Made by a program: the position numbers and the translations under genes. A stretch of DNA of 50,671 nt. Source: an uncultured Candidatus Saccharibacteria bacterium. GTDB lineage: Bacteria; Patescibacteriota; Minisyncoccia; JBAYJV01. The notes under the pieces are model-generated. The model was not told where the DNA came from. It saw only the letters and a program-made list of their open reading frames with translations, and searched no databases. Shown piece by piece: positions 1 to 50,671 of this stretch. The stretch spans positions 11,184 to 61,854 of the forward strand of contig CAYNNF010000003.1 in assembly GCA_964398685.1 (NCBI GenBank), given 5' to 3'. The first letter of the stretch is position 1; each line of letters begins with the position of its first letter.

Positions 1-116
1 GTTTATTATAGTAATCTATAACAAACTGTGTTTATTATAGTAATCTATAACAAACTGTGTTTATTATAGTAATCTATAACAAACCCTGTTTATTATAGCA
101 AATTATAATAAAAACT
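1..116. repeat. 29-bp head-to-tail tandem repeat, about 4 copies, at the window edge
   Basis: The unit gtttattatagtaatctataacaaactgt is identical at 1-29 and 30-58. The copy at 59-87 has 2 changes and the copy at 88-116 is degenerate. There are no spacers between copies. Each unit contains the inverted repeat ttatag-taat-ctataa. Confidence 0.9.
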
Positions 117-169
117 CCCAATAATAATTGGGGATAACATAATTCTCGCGCCTTAATAATTAAATGTAT

Positions 170-810: not shown

Positions 811-895
811 GAATTACAAAACATTGTGTCCGCCGAAGCTTTCTCGGCCTCCGTAGCTGAAGGTACTTCGGTGAAGAAGGCAGCGTAGGCGGGTC
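811..895 (+). repeat. GC-rich miniature element, long variant (copy E1)
   Basis: It starts gaattacaaaacattgtgtccgccgaagc and ends gcgtaggcgggtc. Its first 29 nt match 21/29 positions of the copy at 46011, including the identical tccgccgaagc, and the 3' ends are similar. It is much more GC-rich than its flanks. Outer stem gtccgcc/ggcgggt. Confidence 0.55.
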
Positions 896-1216: not shown

Positions 1217-1236
1217 CCTGCCTGCCGGCAGGCAGG
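1217..1236. other. Perfect 20-bp GC-rich palindrome between ssb and rpsR
   Basis: cctgcctgcc/ggcaggcagg is exactly self-complementary. It lies 5 nt after the ssb stop in otherwise AT-rich DNA. Confidence 0.9.
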
Positions 1237-37473: not shown

Positions 37474-37517
37474 GAATTAGAAGAATCTCCCGGTGAAACC
37501 GAGAGAACCTTGACGGA
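37474..37517 (+). repeat. GC-rich miniature element, short variant (copy F1)
   Basis: Sequence gaattagaagaa-tctcccggtgaaaccgagag-aaccttgacgga. The terminal blocks are identical to the reverse complement of 43960-44005 and the core forms a hairpin. It lies 9 nt upstream of the secD ATG. Confidence 0.7.
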
Positions 37518-41641: not shown

Positions 41642-43858
41642 CTAAGACTTCTTAATATGCAGATTAAATCCTTCCGTTCTTTTCTTGATATTTATAATCC
41701 ATTGTTTGTTTTTTAAATACCAATCAATAACATCCGGTAAAGTTTTTTCAAATGTTTTAGTTGATTGCCATCCAAGATTTTTGTTTATTTTACTAGTATC
41801 AATGGAATATCTTCTATCGTGTCCCGGCCGATCATCTATAAAAGTTAATAAAGACTCTTTGCGTCCTAAAATTTTGAGAATTGCCCGAGCCACATCAATA
41901 TTATGCCGTTCTTGATCGGCGCCAACATTATAAACTTCTCCTATTGCGCCTTCATGTAAAATCTTATCAATCGCAATGCAATGATCTTCAACATAGATCC
42001 AATCTCTCACATTTTTACCATCCCCATACAAAGGAACCTTCTCACGCGCCAACGCTTTAAATAAAAAGAAGGGAATCATTTTCTCCGGATATTGATATGA
42101 TCCATAATTATTGGAACAATGTGTCACAATGACAGGAACTTTATGGGTTCTAAAATAGGCGCGACACATTAAATCGCCGCCTGCTTTTGCCGCCGCATAA
42201 GGAACATTTGGAGCGAAAGGACTGTCCTCTTTAAAATGTCTATCCTCATCTAATTCAACGGATCCGAATGTTTCGTCCGTTGAAATTTGAATCATTTTTT
42301 TAATTTTATATCGCTTAACGGCCTCAAGCAAAGTATGAACTCCGATAACATTGGTCATTAAAAACTCCCTCGCTCCACCATAAATACTTCTATCAACATG
42401 AGTATTATGAACTACAATATTACCAACGCCACAAACAAAATTATGTTTATTGGCTACTTCAATATCATAAACATAACCCTCGTAATCAACTTTTTTTTGT
42501 CTTTTAGAAAGCAGTGAAATTGTGTAGTCGTTCCCGAAAACAAGAGTATAAGCATCAAATCTTTCATCTTTATTAACGGTAAAATTCTTTCTTAGTAAAG
42601 TTAAAAGCAAAGAAATGCCTGTTGCTAGCTTTTTAGAATTTGTTGTATAGCGATATGTAATTGAATGTTTATTTTTAATAATCTGACCATCTCCTAAACA
42701 AAGATGTTCAAGAAACAGGTTTTGAAATTCTGAGCGAAGTTGAAAAATAAAATCTGGAATGAATTTATTTCTCGAATAAACTCCGCACATTTTTCTAAGA
42801 AAACCATAAAGCTTCTTATTGGAAACCGTAAGCTGATACCATCCTTCTTTTCTTTTAAAGAAATTTGGATTATATCCAAGTTTTTTGAAGTCTTCCGTTA
42901 ATAGCTTAATCCAATCTTCGTTGATATTGGTTATATTGGTAATGTATCCACCATTAGCCTTATTATAAGTAGTGCTGCCTTCTGTAATATGAGCTGCCAT
43001 TATCCTTAAGAGGCTTTTAAGTTTCGCTCCTTTGAAATTACCAAAAGAAGTCTTCTTGGGAATATGATTGATGTTTTTAATAGATAACAGTTCGGGATTT
43101 TTAGCAGGTGTTGTTAAATTCCCATCTATGTCATAAATAGAATGATTATTTGTTGCCGTTATTTCTCCCCATTTTTGATTAAGTTGAATGAGTTTTCCTT
43201 TATAATAGTGCCGGGAAATTTGTTTAATAGGTAACCAATAGCCAATGCCACCGTGATTAGCTAATGCCTTTAGATTAGAATTGTTTATGCTAATAATCTC
43301 TACGCCTTTAATTTTTACAACATTATGTTTACCATCTACGCTTAAGTTGAGAAAAAGTTCTTCTAATGTTTGAATCTTGATTTGACCTGCCTTATACAGT
43401 GGTAGATAAGTGTCATTACTTATGCTTTCTGCCGCCCAATTGACAACATAATCAATTTTGTTTTTTGCAAAGACATTGTCAACCTCTTTTTCGTCAGCAA
43501 TATCGCCTTTGATAAATTTATAGTGAGGATTTTTTTCAACTTCTTTTAAATTATCAAGATTACCAGCATAGGTAAGTTTGTCATAATTAATAATCTTATA
43601 ATTCGGGTATTTTTTTAAGATATATCTAATAAAATTGCTTCCAATAAATCCGGCTCCGCCACAAACTAAAACAGTCGCTTTTGCTCCGCCTATTTTGTGA
43701 AAATAATCCAAAAGCTCTTTCTTGGAAAGTTCAGTGACTACGCTTAATTCATCTAAACTCATTTTCCCTTCCTGATATAAATCCAAAAACTTTTTAAGTT
43801 TTTTCAAATAAGCGTCAGATGTATTTTTAAGTTGTAAATCCTTTTTTAATTTCCGCAT
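41642..43858 (-). CDS. rfbB: dTDP-glucose 4,6-dehydratase (RmlB) interrupted by an intein; N-terminal extension
   Basis: Exteins: GGAGFIGS Rossmann, VVNWAAE | THVDRSIYG, PYAAAKAGGD (YxxxK), DRPGHDRRY. The 738 aa total breaks down as ~337 aa RmlB, a 341-aa insert and ~60 aa of extra N-terminus. Confidence 0.9.
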   Translation of the reverse strand: MRKLKKDLQLKNTSDAYLKKLKKFLDLYQEGKMSLDELSVVTELSKKELLDYFHKIGGAKATVLVCGGAGFIGSNFIRYILKKYPNYKIINYDKLTYAGNLDNLKEVEKNPHYKFIKGDIADEKEVDNVFAKNKIDYVVNWAAESISNDTYLPLYKAGQIKIQTLEELFLNLSVDGKHNVVKIKGVEIISINNSNLKALANHGGIGYWLPIKQISRHYYKGKLIQLNQKWGEITATNNHSIYDIDGNLTTPAKNPELLSIKNINHIPKKTSFGNFKGAKLKSLLRIMAAHITEGSTTYNKANGGYITNITNINEDWIKLLTEDFKKLGYNPNFFKRKEGWYQLTVSNKKLYGFLRKMCGVYSRNKFIPDFIFQLRSEFQNLFLEHLCLGDGQIIKNKHSITYRYTTNSKKLATGISLLLTLLRKNFTVNKDERFDAYTLVFGNDYTISLLSKRQKKVDYEGYVYDIEVANKHNFVCGVGNIVVHNTHVDRSIYGGAREFLMTNVIGVHTLLEAVKRYKIKKMIQISTDETFGSVELDEDRHFKEDSPFAPNVPYAAAKAGGDLMCRAYFRTHKVPVIVTHCSNNYGSYQYPEKMIPFFLFKALAREKVPLYGDGKNVRDWIYVEDHCIAIDKILHEGAIGEVYNVGADQERHNIDVARAILKILGRKESLLTFIDDRPGHDRRYSIDTSKINKNLGWQSTKTFEKTLPDVIDWYLKNKQWIINIKKRTEGFNLHIKKS
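42404..43426 (-). mobile_element. Intein (341 aa) with LAGLIDADG-type homing endonuclease domain
   Basis: Block A SISNDTYLPL (Ser1), block B TATNNHSIY (TxxH), C-terminal YVYDIEV...NIVVHN followed by Thr+1. Endonuclease-like LLRIMAAHITEGS and LFLEHLCLGDG. Confidence 0.85.
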
Positions 43859-43959: not shown

Positions 43960-44005
43960 CCCGTCAAGGTTCTGAGGAATGGAATGACGAGGGTTCTTCT
44001 AATTC
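43960..44005 (-). repeat. GC-rich miniature element, short variant (copy F2, inverted relative to F1)
   Basis: The reverse complement reads gaattagaagaa-ccctcgtcattccattcctcag-aaccttgacggg, so both terminal blocks are shared with 37474-37517. It abuts the GT2 stop codon. attcatgattc occurs at 43937-43947 and 44002-44012. Confidence 0.7.
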
Positions 44006-45062: not shown

Positions 45063-45338
45063 TTATTCTGTTGTTCCTTCTGCGGGAAGTTCTTCTTCAG
45101 GTAAAACTTCCTCTGGCAAGACTTCTTCTCCCGGTAAAACTTCTTCAGGTTGAACTTCTTCTTCCGGTAAGGCTTCTTCAGGTAGAATTTCTCCTTCTGG
45201 CAAGACTTCTTCCTCTGCGGGTAGATTTTCTTCTCCAGCAGGAGCTTCTGTTTTTTGGGTAACAACCAAAACTATAAGAACAACAATAATAACAGCAATA
45301 ATTATCCAAATCCATAAATTCTTATTTTTCGCATCCAT
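45063..45338 (-). CDS. Small membrane-anchored protein with acidic Pro/Glu hexapeptide repeats
   Basis: N-terminal TM (LWIWIIIAVIIVVLIVLVV), then ~9 imperfect repeats of (E/G)E(E)(V/A/I)LP(E), encoded by an ~18-bp DNA periodicity at 45066-45239. Confidence 0.6.
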   Translation of the reverse strand: MDAKNKNLWIWIIIAVIIVVLIVLVVTQKTEAPAGEENLPAEEEVLPEGEILPEEALPEEEVQPEEVLPGEEVLPEEVLPEEELPAEGTTE

Positions 45339-45532: not shown

Positions 45533-46684
45533 TTAGACAAACCATTTTTCCATTTCTTTCGCTCTCGCTTTCTTTTTCTTCATAATAATTTTTCTCTGTT
45601 TAAGCGCTTTGGGTATTTGCCTAAACATTTGTGGTAAAATTTTTAGGATTCTCGGCTCAAATAAAATTATATATCCCCATGCCCTAATTTCTTTCCAAAT
45701 TATCCAAGGAAAATGTTTAATATATAACCCTAGTGTTTCGTTCTTTATCTGCATTAATCTTTGATTTTTAAAAGAAATTGTTTTGGCAAAAAGAGAAATG
45801 TTTCTTCTTTCTCTAACAATATCTAGTGATTTTTTTGACGCGCTCTCGCCAGCGCCCCTTTCGTGATAAGCCAAAATATTTGGAACATAAATTGTTTTCC
45901 ATCCATATAATTTTAATCGCCATGCCAAATCCACATCTTCCTTATAACAGAAGAAAGATGAATCAAAATACTCTCTTAGTTCTTCTTTCTGAGTCACCCT
46001 AGGCGACGAAGAATTAGAAGGACTTAGATCCGCCGAAGCCCTGCCTATCGGCAAGGCAGGTTTACACGAAGACGGGCTCGTTTTTTTGACACTAAAGCTT
46101 GGCAATTTTACATCTTCAAGCGCTTTCCTGCGATAAATTGGTACTGCGCCATCTGCCCCAAAAATTTCTTCCTGTTGATTAAATTGCCCCTTATCTGTCT
46201 GTCCTTGCCCGCGATTAATAATTCTTCTATTTTTAAGCATTAGAAGACCAGTTGTATCAAAAATATTTTTGGGTTTTCCTTTTTCAAAATCATATTTTAA
46301 AACCTTTGGTTGAAGAGCTGCAATTGTTTTATCTTTTTCTAAAATTTTAATTGCCTCTGTTAAAAAATCGGTTGTTAAAATTGCATCTTGATTTAAAAGC
46401 ATTACATATTCACCGTCAGTTATTTTAATCCCTTGATTGTGTCCAGCCGCAAAACCGACATTTTCTTTATTTTTAATATATGTAATCTTCCGTGTGTGTT
46501 CCGTGTCTTTTTTTGTTCCGTGTAAATAATCTCTGATTATTTTTTCTGTGCCATCCTTAGAATCATTATCAATAATTAAAATTTCGTAATTTGGATAATC
46601 TTGCGCAAGCGCTGAATCTAAACAAAGCTTTAAATATTTTTCGGCATTCCAAGTTAAAATGTTAATGTTTACTTTTGGTTTCAT
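45533..46684 (-). CDS. Family 2 glycosyltransferase carrying an in-frame GC-rich insertion
   Basis: NINILTWNA, LIIDNDSKDGT and YKEDVDLAWR GT2 blocks. About 35-40 extra Ser/Pro-rich aa lie between the ..YRRKALEDV and ..FFCYKED blocks when compared with the two GT2 paralogs in this window. Confidence 0.85.
   Translation of the reverse strand: MKPKVNINILTWNAEKYLKLCLDSALAQDYPNYEILIIDNDSKDGTEKIIRDYLHGTKKDTEHTRKITYIKNKENVGFAAGHNQGIKITDGEYVMLLNQDAILTTDFLTEAIKILEKDKTIAALQPKVLKYDFEKGKPKNIFDTTGLLMLKNRRIINRGQGQTDKGQFNQQEEIFGADGAVPIYRRKALEDVKLPSFSVKKTSPSSCKPALPIGRASADLSPSNSSSPRVTQKEELREYFDSSFFCYKEDVDLAWRLKLYGWKTIYVPNILAYHERGAGESASKKSLDIVRERRNISLFAKTISFKNQRLMQIKNETLGLYIKHFPWIIWKEIRAWGYIILFEPRILKILPQMFRQIPKALKQRKIIMKKKKARAKEMEKWFV
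46011..46077 (+). repeat. GC-rich miniature element (copy F3) inside the GT2 coding sequence
   Basis: gaattagaaggacttagatccgccgaagc-cctgcctatcggcaaggcagg-tttacacgaagacgggct. It shares gaattagaag with F1/F2, tccgccgaagc with E1, and an ...acggg end. Internal hairpin cctgcc/ggcagg. Confidence 0.55.
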
Positions 46685-49553: not shown

Positions 49554-50555
49554 TCAAAATATTATTTTTTGACATTTGGATTTTGTCATTTTGATTTCTC
49601 CATATCTCCCTCTCCAAAAATCCCAAGTTGCTTTAATTAGTGGTTTTACCCACTTCCTTTTTTTAGGCAAAAATATTTTAAACGGTTGTTTGGTTAATTT
49701 ATAAACAGAGTAGAAAACAACAAGAATTTTTTGCTGCAAATTTCCGTTTTTCCACGCTAAAAAATATCCATTGCGCATAAGATAATAAATATAATTAAAA
49801 GAAAGATATTCCGTTGAATGATATCCTTTATGATAAATTATAGCGCTGGGCACAATTGCATGAAAGTATTTTTTTTCTCTTGCTTTAACCGCCCAATCAG
49901 AATCTTCATAATACAAAAAATAATCTTCATCCATGTAGCCAATATCGTCCAAAACTTTTTCGCTTAATAATAGCGCGGTACCGGTAATGTAGTCAGTTGT
50001 AAACGGATCATTATTGTTGAGTCCTTTTTTTGTTTTACCATGATCTTTTAAAGTAGCGCTTGTCAAATTTTTATTAATAAAACCGCCGTTTGAATAAATT
50101 GTTTTTTTATCTTCATAAAAAATTCTTGGACCTAAAAAGCCAAGTTTTTTTCCTTTTTTAATTTCGGCCTTTATGGCCCTATAGCTTTCCGGCTTTACGG
50201 CCACTCCTATTAATTTTTTAAGAAAACCTGGCTCAATGGTCGTATCTGGATTCAAGAGCAGAAAATAATTTGATCCTAATTCTTTCGCTTTTTTAATTCC
50301 TAAATTACAACCGCCAGCAAAGCCAAGATTTTCTTTTGATTCTATTAATCTTACTATTGGGTGTTTATTGTCAAGCATCAAGTGTTTGAGAAAATTTTTA
50401 ATTTTCTCATAAGAATTATTCGCTGAACCATTATCAATAACAACAACATTAAAATTAGGATAATCTAATTTAACTAAACTTTTTAAACAATTAATGGTTT
50501 CTTCAAAACCGTTATAATTGACAATAATAATCGAAACTTTAGGATTACTTTTCAT
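49554..50555 (-). CDS. Family 2 glycosyltransferase
   Basis: VSIIIVNYNG, VVVIDNGSAN, GFAGGCN, YYEDSDWAVKAR. Confidence 0.88.
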   Translation of the reverse strand: MKSNPKVSIIIVNYNGFEETINCLKSLVKLDYPNFNVVVIDNGSANNSYEKIKNFLKHLMLDNKHPIVRLIESKENLGFAGGCNLGIKKAKELGSNYFLLLNPDTTIEPGFLKKLIGVAVKPESYRAIKAEIKKGKKLGFLGPRIFYEDKKTIYSNGGFINKNLTSATLKDHGKTKKGLNNNDPFTTDYITGTALLLSEKVLDDIGYMDEDYFLYYEDSDWAVKAREKKYFHAIVPSAIIYHKGYHSTEYLSFNYIYYLMRNGYFLAWKNGNLQQKILVVFYSVYKLTKQPFKIFLPKKRKWVKPLIKATWDFWRGRYGEIKMTKSKCQKIIF

Positions 50556-50671
50556 GCGGTTATAAAATAGTCTAATTTTTTGAAACTTTCAGGTCAACCA
50601 ACAGTTTTAATAAACTGTTATAATTGACAATAATAATCGAAACTTTAGGATTACTTTTCATGCGGTTATAA
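50511..50671. repeat. 55-bp direct repeat (50511-50565 and 50617-50671) duplicating the 5' end of the GT2 gene
   Basis: The two copies gttataattgacaataataatcgaaactttaggattacttttcatgcggttataa are identical, 106 bp apart. The second copy runs to the last base of the window. Confidence 0.9.

Follow-up and report, generated by a model that had tools for sequence, protein, structure and literature searches.

Nested palindromic repeats in frame within a predicted surface loop of a Patescibacteria GT2 glycosyltransferase

The GT2 gene and its inserted loop

We analyzed a window of 50,671 nucleotides (nt) of a Patescibacteria genome (C3:11184-61854; contigs are written C1, C2, and so on). The assembly comprises 793,609 bp on 24 contigs with 34.5% GC, and the metagenome-assembled genomes related to it belong to 'Candidatus Paceibacterota' and other Patescibacteria. 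The window holds a glycan locus with genes in the order GT4, Wzy_C, GT2 (45533-46684), a small open reading frame (ORF), a second GT2, and an RmlB-type dehydratase, and this synteny is kept in ortholog contigs. Our subject is a GC-rich patch that lies in frame inside the GT2 gene at 45533-46684. It is built of two nested hairpin repeats and quite probably represents selfish or neutral repeat DNA lodged in a tolerant surface loop of the enzyme, where it would be read as about 35 disordered residues.

The GT2 gene is encoded on the minus strand and specifies 383 amino acids (aa) with a match to PF00535 (E = 7.8e-30). The product belongs to GT2, based on its GT-A fold and the presence of nucleotide-sugar-binding and acidic motifs. 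Residues D39, D100, E249, D250, and D252, in the acidic/catalytic-region motifs, are invariant across 30 orthologs. The AlphaFold2 model has a mean predicted local distance difference test score (pLDDT) of 85.5 and a predicted template modeling score of 0.85, and its best Foldseek matches are the GT-A enzymes ppGalNAc-T2, SpsA, and TarS.

The protein contains a variable loop (45974-46105, minus strand; residues 194-237, LPSFSVKK...QKEELR) that is missing in minimal orthologs, which read ALEDVKI-DNEYFDE. Comparison with the two GT2 paralogs of the window gave a 45-column insertion between ALEDVK and EYFDSSFF, amounting to about 41 to 45 extra residues. The loop has 48% GC, versus 31.6% for the remainder of the gene, and 60-nt windows over 45990-46079 reach 53 to 60% GC, versus about 23 to 35% on both sides. 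The reading frame is open through the insert, and the peptides spanning it, as encoded, are TSPSSCKPALPIGR and ASADLSPSNSSSPR. A preliminary description of this sequence had reported a GC-rich patch with an open frame in the GT2 insert, and our measurements confirm it.

In the AlphaFold2 prediction, residues 199-233 (45986-46090), whose pLDDT is below 50, leave the fold as an unstructured stretch flanked by two short paired strands. Structure modeling, which had been proposed as a check, accordingly returned a disordered loop. Because the GT-A model is confident, the low pLDDT is confined to residues 199-233, and the acidic motifs are invariant, the insert is predicted to sit at a disordered surface loop where a working enzyme can tolerate it.

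The identical GT2 protein is present on 12 contigs, and the insert is unchanged in a strain variant (P0121; 99% identical) that comes from separate assemblies of JGI and ENA. Misassembly is therefore very unlikely. P0121 differs from our gene by 3 nucleotides (gene positions 221, 413, and 595), all of which change an amino acid (E74A, P138L, and V199I); their number is too small to interpret. None of the three substitutions falls within the GC-rich elements.

The folding energy of the whole 111-nt segment was not unusual (z = -1.3). A terminator scan called no site in 45700-46400, and Rfam (gathering thresholds) and ARAGORN, run over the entire window, returned no RNA gene that would explain its GC-rich patches.

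Two nested layers, their families, and neighboring features

As an intact sequence, the insert matched little else. A repeat search linked it to nothing, all-against-all BLAST of 218 GC-rich islands left it unclustered, and single-sequence nhmmer and blastn returned only a marginal match to an element at 811-895 (E = 0.43). Kinships surfaced only after the insert was split into two layers. Based on sequence comparison, we read the insert as a mosaic in which a 21-nt palindrome is nested in the loop of an older hairpin of about 54 nt, for a combined 75 nt; both layer lengths are multiples of three. The preliminary description had treated the patch as a single GC-rich element. A repeat element does lie there in frame, but it consists of two nested elements, not one.

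The inner layer (46040-46060, no strand assigned) is the palindrome CCTGCCTATCGGCAAGGCAGG, one base longer than the 20-nt consensus CCTGCCTRCCGRYAGGCAGG of its family. It forms the hairpin cctgcc-tatcggcaa-ggcagg, found where it had been described, and codes for PALPIGR (residues 209-215). A profile built from 7 other palindrome copies, with the insert excluded, recovered the insert at E = 0.0088. All matches of this profile below an E value of about 0.1 were true copies, and noise began near 0.4. CCTGCCTATCGGCAAGGCAGG is identical at 19/21 positions to C8:9834-9854 and at 21/22 to C1:15328-15347. The palindrome motif has 17 genome occurrences versus 0 in each of 20 composition-preserving block shuffles, and it arose in 35 of 200,000 shuffles of the insert itself (p ~2e-4).

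At no more than one mismatch to CCTGCCTRCCGRYAGGCAGG, the palindrome is found at 16 loci in this genome; a regular-expression search gives 17, including the 21-nt GT2 copy. Roughly half of the copies are inside ORFs of at least 150 aa, not all of which are verified as genes. The canonical intergenic copy in the window (1217-1236, no strand assigned) reads TTTGACG-CCTGCCTGCCGGCAGGCAGG-GAAAGC and lies between ORFs at 972-1172 and 1242-1694, both on the minus strand. It thus has GACG, or CGTC on the opposite strand, immediately adjacent. Such tags recur in the family: four copies read GACG-CCTGCC (CGTC on the other strand), and about seven have GGCAGG-CTT-GACGG or something close to it. No tag adjoins the GT2 copy, whose nearest CGTC is 12 nt off. 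Read from the sequence, the palindrome is free of stop codons in every frame, and therefore copies of a frame-keeping length can be read through. Among 41 genomes of the class, the palindrome was found in 23, patchily over many families and at 0 to about 41 copies each, and a reversed control pattern was found in none.

The 20-nt palindrome CCTGCCTGCCGGCAGGCAGG is frequently nested in the modules of a second repeat family, as seen by inspecting GC-rich islands. This modular family has about 30 genome copies of the form GAAGAACC-[variable hairpin]-AGAACCTTGACGG[AG]AGA, and its members in the window include F1 (37474-37517, plus strand) and F2 (43960-44005, minus strand). F2 is the 'empty' counterpart of a copy at C11:~650-750, and a second filled/empty pair is formed by C11:~528 and C6:38728. 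In both pairs the difference is exactly 20 nt, and neither flank is duplicated. Target-site duplication was absent in three filled/empty comparisons (these two 20-nt pairs and the 21-nt GT2 case described below). The palindrome is a discrete unit, present or absent at otherwise homologous sites without target-site duplication. We considered and rejected a rule by which in-gene copies would be 21 nt and intergenic copies 20 nt, as 20-nt copies occur in larger composite inserts within ORFs.

The F1/F2 modules have further features of their own. They are often flanked on both sides by the same AT-rich units (AAACTTA, GAATTAT/GAATCAT, and TTTCAAT), and they sometimes occur in tandem or adjoin tRNA genes. 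Their stems vary, and their single-stranded parts are constant.

The outer layer consists of the 5' half (46015-46039, plus strand; TAGAAGGACTTAGATCCGCCGAAGC) and the 3' half (46061-46089, plus strand; TTTACACGAAGACGGGCTCGTTTTTTTGA) of the ~54-nt hairpin, whose stem is formed by CCGCC and GACGG pairing over the nested palindrome. When the palindrome was excised from the insert, marginal matches to copies on C18 and C6 emerged. A profile of only C18:340-408 and C6:48958-49028 matched the excised insert at E = 8.2e-6 (25.1 bits), versus E = 0.017 for the native insert, and also found a fourth copy at C21:17-63 (E = 3.1e-5). The four outer-layer sequences share the core CTTAgayCCGCCrAAGyTTyA-rCG-rGrCGGrCT, which comprises a short stem and a conserved loop. 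Of the three other copies, that on C6 is intergenic, and those on C18 and C21 are located at contig ends and outside verified genes.

The outer layer is also present in an ortholog of the GT2 gene from another genus of the same family (P0006, locus L001, genome G003). The loop DNA is 69.5% identical to that of this ortholog over 213 aligned columns, versus 74.4% for the whole gene, and the loop alignment is broken just once, by a 21-nt gap exactly at the palindrome (46040-46060). We favor the two-layer reading because of this exact 21-nt gap and because the excised remainder matches the C18, C6, and C21 copies. A genome of the same genus (G001, ortholog P0007) has neither layer and carries (CAGAAGC)n heptamers instead. 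The insert is specific to its lineage only in part: the closest sequenced relative lacks both layers, but the outer layer is common to a genome of another genus.

Kinship had originally been proposed in part on the basis of two shared words, and we located both as claimed. The 10-mer GAATTAGAAG at 46011-46020 recurs exactly in F1 (37474) and F2 (43996, minus strand). However, of the 15 genome occurrences of this word, 10 are outside F1/F2-type elements, and within the window it has 17 matches at no more than one mismatch versus 9.1 +/- 3.2 expected. F1 has only the 10-mer in common with the GT2 insert. We rejected the insert as a member of the F1/F2 family (GAAGAACC...CTTGACGGAAGA) for lack of support, since only the 10-mer and GACGGG are common and the right end matches at 8/16 positions by eye. 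The second word, TCCGCCGAAGC (followed by TTT), is shared with the element at 811-895 (plus strand). That element is the best non-self nhmmer match of the insert, yet later tests gave E values of 0.5 and 1.6, and its kinship is statistically unsupported. Statistically supported alignments do exist, but not to the copies first cited; they are to CCTGCC...GGCAGG palindromes, such as those at 1217-1236 and C8:9834-9854, and to the hairpins on C18, C6, and C21.

A search of other coding sequences, which had also been suggested, found in-frame palindrome copies in three further proteins of this genome. A flavoprotein on C8 (HI0933-like) has, relative to PDB structure 2i0z, 17 extra residues exactly over '...GRTSPVRTGENPALPAGRL' (...NPALPAGRL). 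In a C1 protein, the GDE_C domain is interrupted by a translated-repeat block that includes GLPADRQG. An ELP3-like protein carries the palindrome in its C-terminal tail, which ends ...LSCLPTGRAREP.

The GDE_C (amylo-1,6-glucosidase) protein is encoded at C1:14264-16279. This ORF and a second one at C1:17880-19973, which has no Pfam match, are both long and contain several hundred bases of translated repeat clusters together with the CCTGCC palindrome. The peptides encoded by these clusters include CHSERSEESQ, RHPERSEGSR, VIARNEVTKQS, and LRFARNDK.

In another region of genome G003 (L096; G003:C3:75000-79000), the CCTGCC palindrome lies inside tRNA-like sequences at the D-arm position (~2395-2440 and 2790-2840). 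The context reads GGCGGAATTGGTAGAC-CTGCC..GGCAGG-CGCGC, and an adjoining intact-looking tRNA has GGCAGACGCGC at the equivalent place. The palindrome-bearing sequences are either interrupted tRNA genes or tRNA pseudogenes, and the pattern suggests GAC^GC as an insertion target.

Several features neighbor the GT2 gene or bound the window. Directly downstream of GT2 is a 91-aa ORF (45063-45338, minus strand) with a hydrophobic N terminus and a tail of 15/18-nt tandem repeats (45077-45209) that code for (E/P)EEVLP-type units; ortholog contigs have a small ORF of 77 to 96 aa at the equivalent position. The RmlB-type dTDP-glucose 4,6-dehydratase (738 aa, 41642-43858, minus strand) carries an intein, a call based on precomputed Pfam matches to Intein_splicing and, faintly, LAGLIDADG_3 on the identical gene in strain-variant contigs. 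Its orthologs on other contigs are 393 to 397 aa and lack the intein. The start of the window (1-141) has four tandem copies of a 29-nt repeat, GTTTATTATAGTAATCTATAACAAACTGT, and its end (50506-50671) has a 60-nt direct repeat, 106 nt apart.

Recurrent occupation of the loop and rival explanations

We aligned 119 full-length homologs of the GT2 protein, drawn from the best 120 listed out of 910 at E <= 1e-10. Among these 119, the loop site holds from 0 to about 50 extra residues, mostly with no sequence relationship from one lineage to the next. The alignment did not show diverse lineages with a homologous loop of normal composition, so this comparison, which had been named as a possible refutation, left the repeat reading standing. 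The palindrome is present in four ortholog loops, each time with different flanks. It lies between CAATTTTCAATTTT repeats in P0008 and between ATCAGCGC repeats in P0013. P0005 has the same flanks as P0008 with a different hairpin pair, and the loop type of P0012, which has the palindrome, is found without it in P0009. The loops of more distant orthologs are built in the same way, from GC-rich stems surrounded by short tandem units. In a distant ortholog taken as an independent replication (L029, 'Moraniibacteriota'), the loop insert of 108 nt has 63 matches in its own 0.8-Mb genome. Near-full-length copies of this insert are 76 to 90% identical, the best being 90% over 81 nt (E = 3.3e-26).

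Heptamer tandem repeats occur in the coding sequence of the same loop in several GT2 orthologs. We observed (CAGAAGC)x3-4 in L085 and L002/L093, (AACTCGY)x4 in L087, (GAAGTYC)x4-5 in L081/L082, and (AAATTCA)n in L044. Because one heptamer gained or lost shifts the frame, these arrays are candidate phase-variation switches of a surface-glycan enzyme.

We interpret the GT2 insert as a putative in-frame passenger at a recurrent, tolerant site, similar to repetitive extragenic palindromic (REP) sequences or Rickettsia palindromic elements (RPEs). A likeness to RPEs had been proposed in the preliminary description, and it is supported by the repeat-family matches, the lack of the insert in the closest relative, the modeled disordered surface loop, and the other in-frame copies. 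Under this interpretation, the outer ~54-nt hairpin would have been lodged in the GT2 loop by insertion, rather than being a remnant of deletions elsewhere, and the 21-nt palindrome would then have been nested, also by insertion, in the loop of that hairpin. Spread could involve hairpins in single-stranded DNA, on which an HUH/Y1 transposase might act in trans. The encoded peptide would itself be functionless, with selection removing only copies that break the frame or the fold. The in-gene copies that survive are in frame and at tolerant positions.

The genome encodes two Y1_Tnp (IS200-like) homologs, at C1:41756-42460 and C2:30335-31090 (minus strand). The hairpin GGGGAAGTCSGACTTCCCC brackets the C2 gene on either side and has 7 genome copies, one of them inside the transposase ORF (C2:30877), and the C1 gene is flanked by the inverted repeats GGGGTCA[AG]CTCTA. 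The palindrome lies within ~500 nt of only 2 of 12 Y1 loci examined, in each case on one side only. A link of the kind seen between REPs and their associated tyrosine transposases (RAYTs), the REPtron, was not supported by either the co-occurrence or the neighborhood tests.

Several observations weigh against our interpretation. The palindrome is tied to no transposase: the Y1 genes are bracketed by hairpins other than the CCTGCC palindrome, and across the 41 genomes the abundance of the palindrome does not follow the presence of Y1, as in G040, which has about 41 copies and no Y1 gene. The flanks of the GT2 palindrome have no significant match to the usual flanks of the family, and its orientation is not callable. 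Translation of the segment is predicted from the open frame. Since the outer layer is seen in just two lineages, a 21-nt deletion in G003 is possible. The outer stem shows a compensatory change between this genome and G003, from G-C to T-A in an alignment by eye, which may indicate that the hairpin is kept for a function. Finally, loop types are at odds with a gene tree from which the loop was masked, so turnover, recombination, or parallel insertion must be involved in the history of the loop.

This last point leads to the first alternative, in which the loop arrived or was remodeled by recombination or gene conversion, not transposition. Cassettes would have been exchanged among Paceibacteria or copied from intergenic repeats, and the 21-nt difference would be an unstable-palindrome deletion in the G003 lineage. 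We consider this combination possible but on balance doubtful. Palindromes are deletion-prone, and our loop matches that of P0006/G003, which sits in a different clade of the loop-masked tree (support 100/99). Our nearest relatives, P0002 and P0003, carry short unrelated loops, and the P0008 loop resembles those of P0004 and P0005 of the other clade. However, the internal branches of this tree are short and partly unresolved, and the 20-nt unit is also present or absent at two other unrelated sites. The four ortholog loops with four flanks are more easily explained by repeated gain.

A broader proposal joins three ideas, and we judge it distinctly unlikely that they all hold together. First, the GT2 loop would be a preferred site for a class-wide system of 'SSR-flanked hairpins' (SSR, simple sequence repeat), refilled with each genome's own palindromes between short, often 7-nt, tandem repeats. 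Second, the CCTGCC 20-mer would move as a bare hairpin by a single-strand mechanism, with no dedicated enzyme and no target duplication. Third, the heptamer arrays would act as frame-shifting on/off switches for the glycosyltransferase.

There is little chance, in our view, that the element is kept for a function, whether as a DNA or RNA hairpin signal (protein binding, pausing or processing, or antisense) or as a useful peptide loop. The conservation of the palindrome over many families of the class would fit such a role, as would the one compensatory stem change, the T7 run that follows the outer hairpin on the plus strand, and the unchanged insert in strain variants. In most orthologs, however, the site holds unrelated sequence or nothing. 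The scans called no terminator-like site and no Rfam match, the peptide is predicted to be disordered, and the proteins that host in-frame copies are functionally unrelated.

Even less probable is an ordinary fast-evolving disordered linker whose likeness to repeats is a coincidence of GC-rich low-complexity convergence. The length of the site does vary in nearly all orthologs, many ortholog loops are not GC-rich, the fold of the whole segment is not significant, and the copies first cited are no more similar than expected by chance. Against coincidence stand two independent insert-excluding profile tests with genome-wide significance, the shuffle result (p ~2e-4), the exact 21-nt indel, and the L029 loop insert, with over 60 copies in the genome it comes from. 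The profile, shuffle, and L029 results have already largely refuted this explanation.

An assembly artefact or chimeric insertion has a negligible probability: the source is metagenome assembled and palindromes can confuse assemblers, but the 12 identical contigs, the separately assembled strain variant that keeps the insert despite 3 substitutions, and an insert that is in frame and partly common to another genus all argue otherwise.

If the passenger interpretation is correct, small hairpin repeats still spread, and are tolerated within working enzymes, in a genome of only 0.79 Mb. One glycosyltransferase surface loop would record many independent captures of repeat DNA across a bacterial class. 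The loop would then be a natural experiment in REP-like movement without an assignable transposase, in the absorption of junk by a protein, and in the origin of loop sequence. Inserts of this kind inflate and distort Patescibacteria protein alignments and annotations, and the 20-nt palindrome could serve as a lineage marker.

Comparison with known palindromic repeats

We classify the element as REP-like, acting like an RPE or an intragenic REP. The closest description is that of CGTC-tagged REPs, which are short (20 to 40 bp) GC-rich palindromes that form mosaic clusters with other motifs (Di Nocera et al. 2013, PMC3733652). Some in-frame copies of these REPs lie inside genes for known enzymes, where they code for ~20 to 30 residues; no dedicated transposase is known for them, and they do not correlate with Y1 genes (PMC3733652). 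The palindrome of the GT2 insert is likewise intragenic and in frame, has no known dedicated transposase, and is uncorrelated with Y1, and several copies of its family have CGTC/GACG at or near one end. Unlike the tagged REPs, the GT2 copy is tagless and nested in a second hairpin, its host belongs to the Patescibacteria, and the same protein loop has been hit repeatedly. We do not claim membership in the tagged class, because only some copies carry CGTC/GACG and the GT2 copy carries none.

The 20-nt family corresponds to REPs in being a short (20 to 40 bp), imperfect, GC-rich, repeated palindrome. It does not share their high copy number and mainly extragenic location. According to Nunvar et al. 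(2010, PMC2817692), REPs usually number at least 100 copies, whereas the palindrome is low copy, with ~16 copies here, 0 to 41 in 40 relatives, and ~41 as the maximum per genome. The REP/REPIN-RAYT systems and bacterial interspersed mosaic elements of Proteobacteria (PMC2817692, PMC3116915) have in common with our case hairpin repeats, modular mosaics, and Y1 homologs bracketed by their own hairpins. In contrast to those systems, the Y1-bracketing hairpins here (e.g., GGGGAAGTCSGACTTCCCC) are not the CCTGCC palindrome.

RPEs are palindromic repeats found in frame in unrelated metabolic genes and tolerated where the fold is undisturbed (reviewed in PMC10969869). The present element resembles them in its in-frame insertion into unrelated enzymes at tolerant positions. 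It does so in multiple genes (those for GT2, the flavoprotein, the GDE_C protein, and the ELP3-like tail), and for GT2 the tolerance of the fold is seen in the predicted structure. RPEs measure ~100 to 150 bp and have a family-specific conserved peptide, whereas the units here are 20 to 21 and ~54 nt (21 + ~54 = 75 nt in GT2), and the phylum differs; this comparison is by description. Miniature inverted-repeat transposable elements that make in-frame fusions, such as ERIC, QMITE1, and Correia, among others (PMC10969869), are similarly small, non-autonomous repeats readable through genes. They differ from the palindrome, which carries no other inverted repeats at its ends and showed no target-site duplication in the three filled/empty comparisons.

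Intragenic in-frame palindromic repeats are thus established in Rickettsia and several other phyla (PMC3733652, PMC10969869). Our literature search found no published account of them in Patescibacteria. What distinguishes the present case from these known systems is the nesting of two layers, a bare 20-nt unit lacking target duplication, and the reoccupation of one loop across a class.

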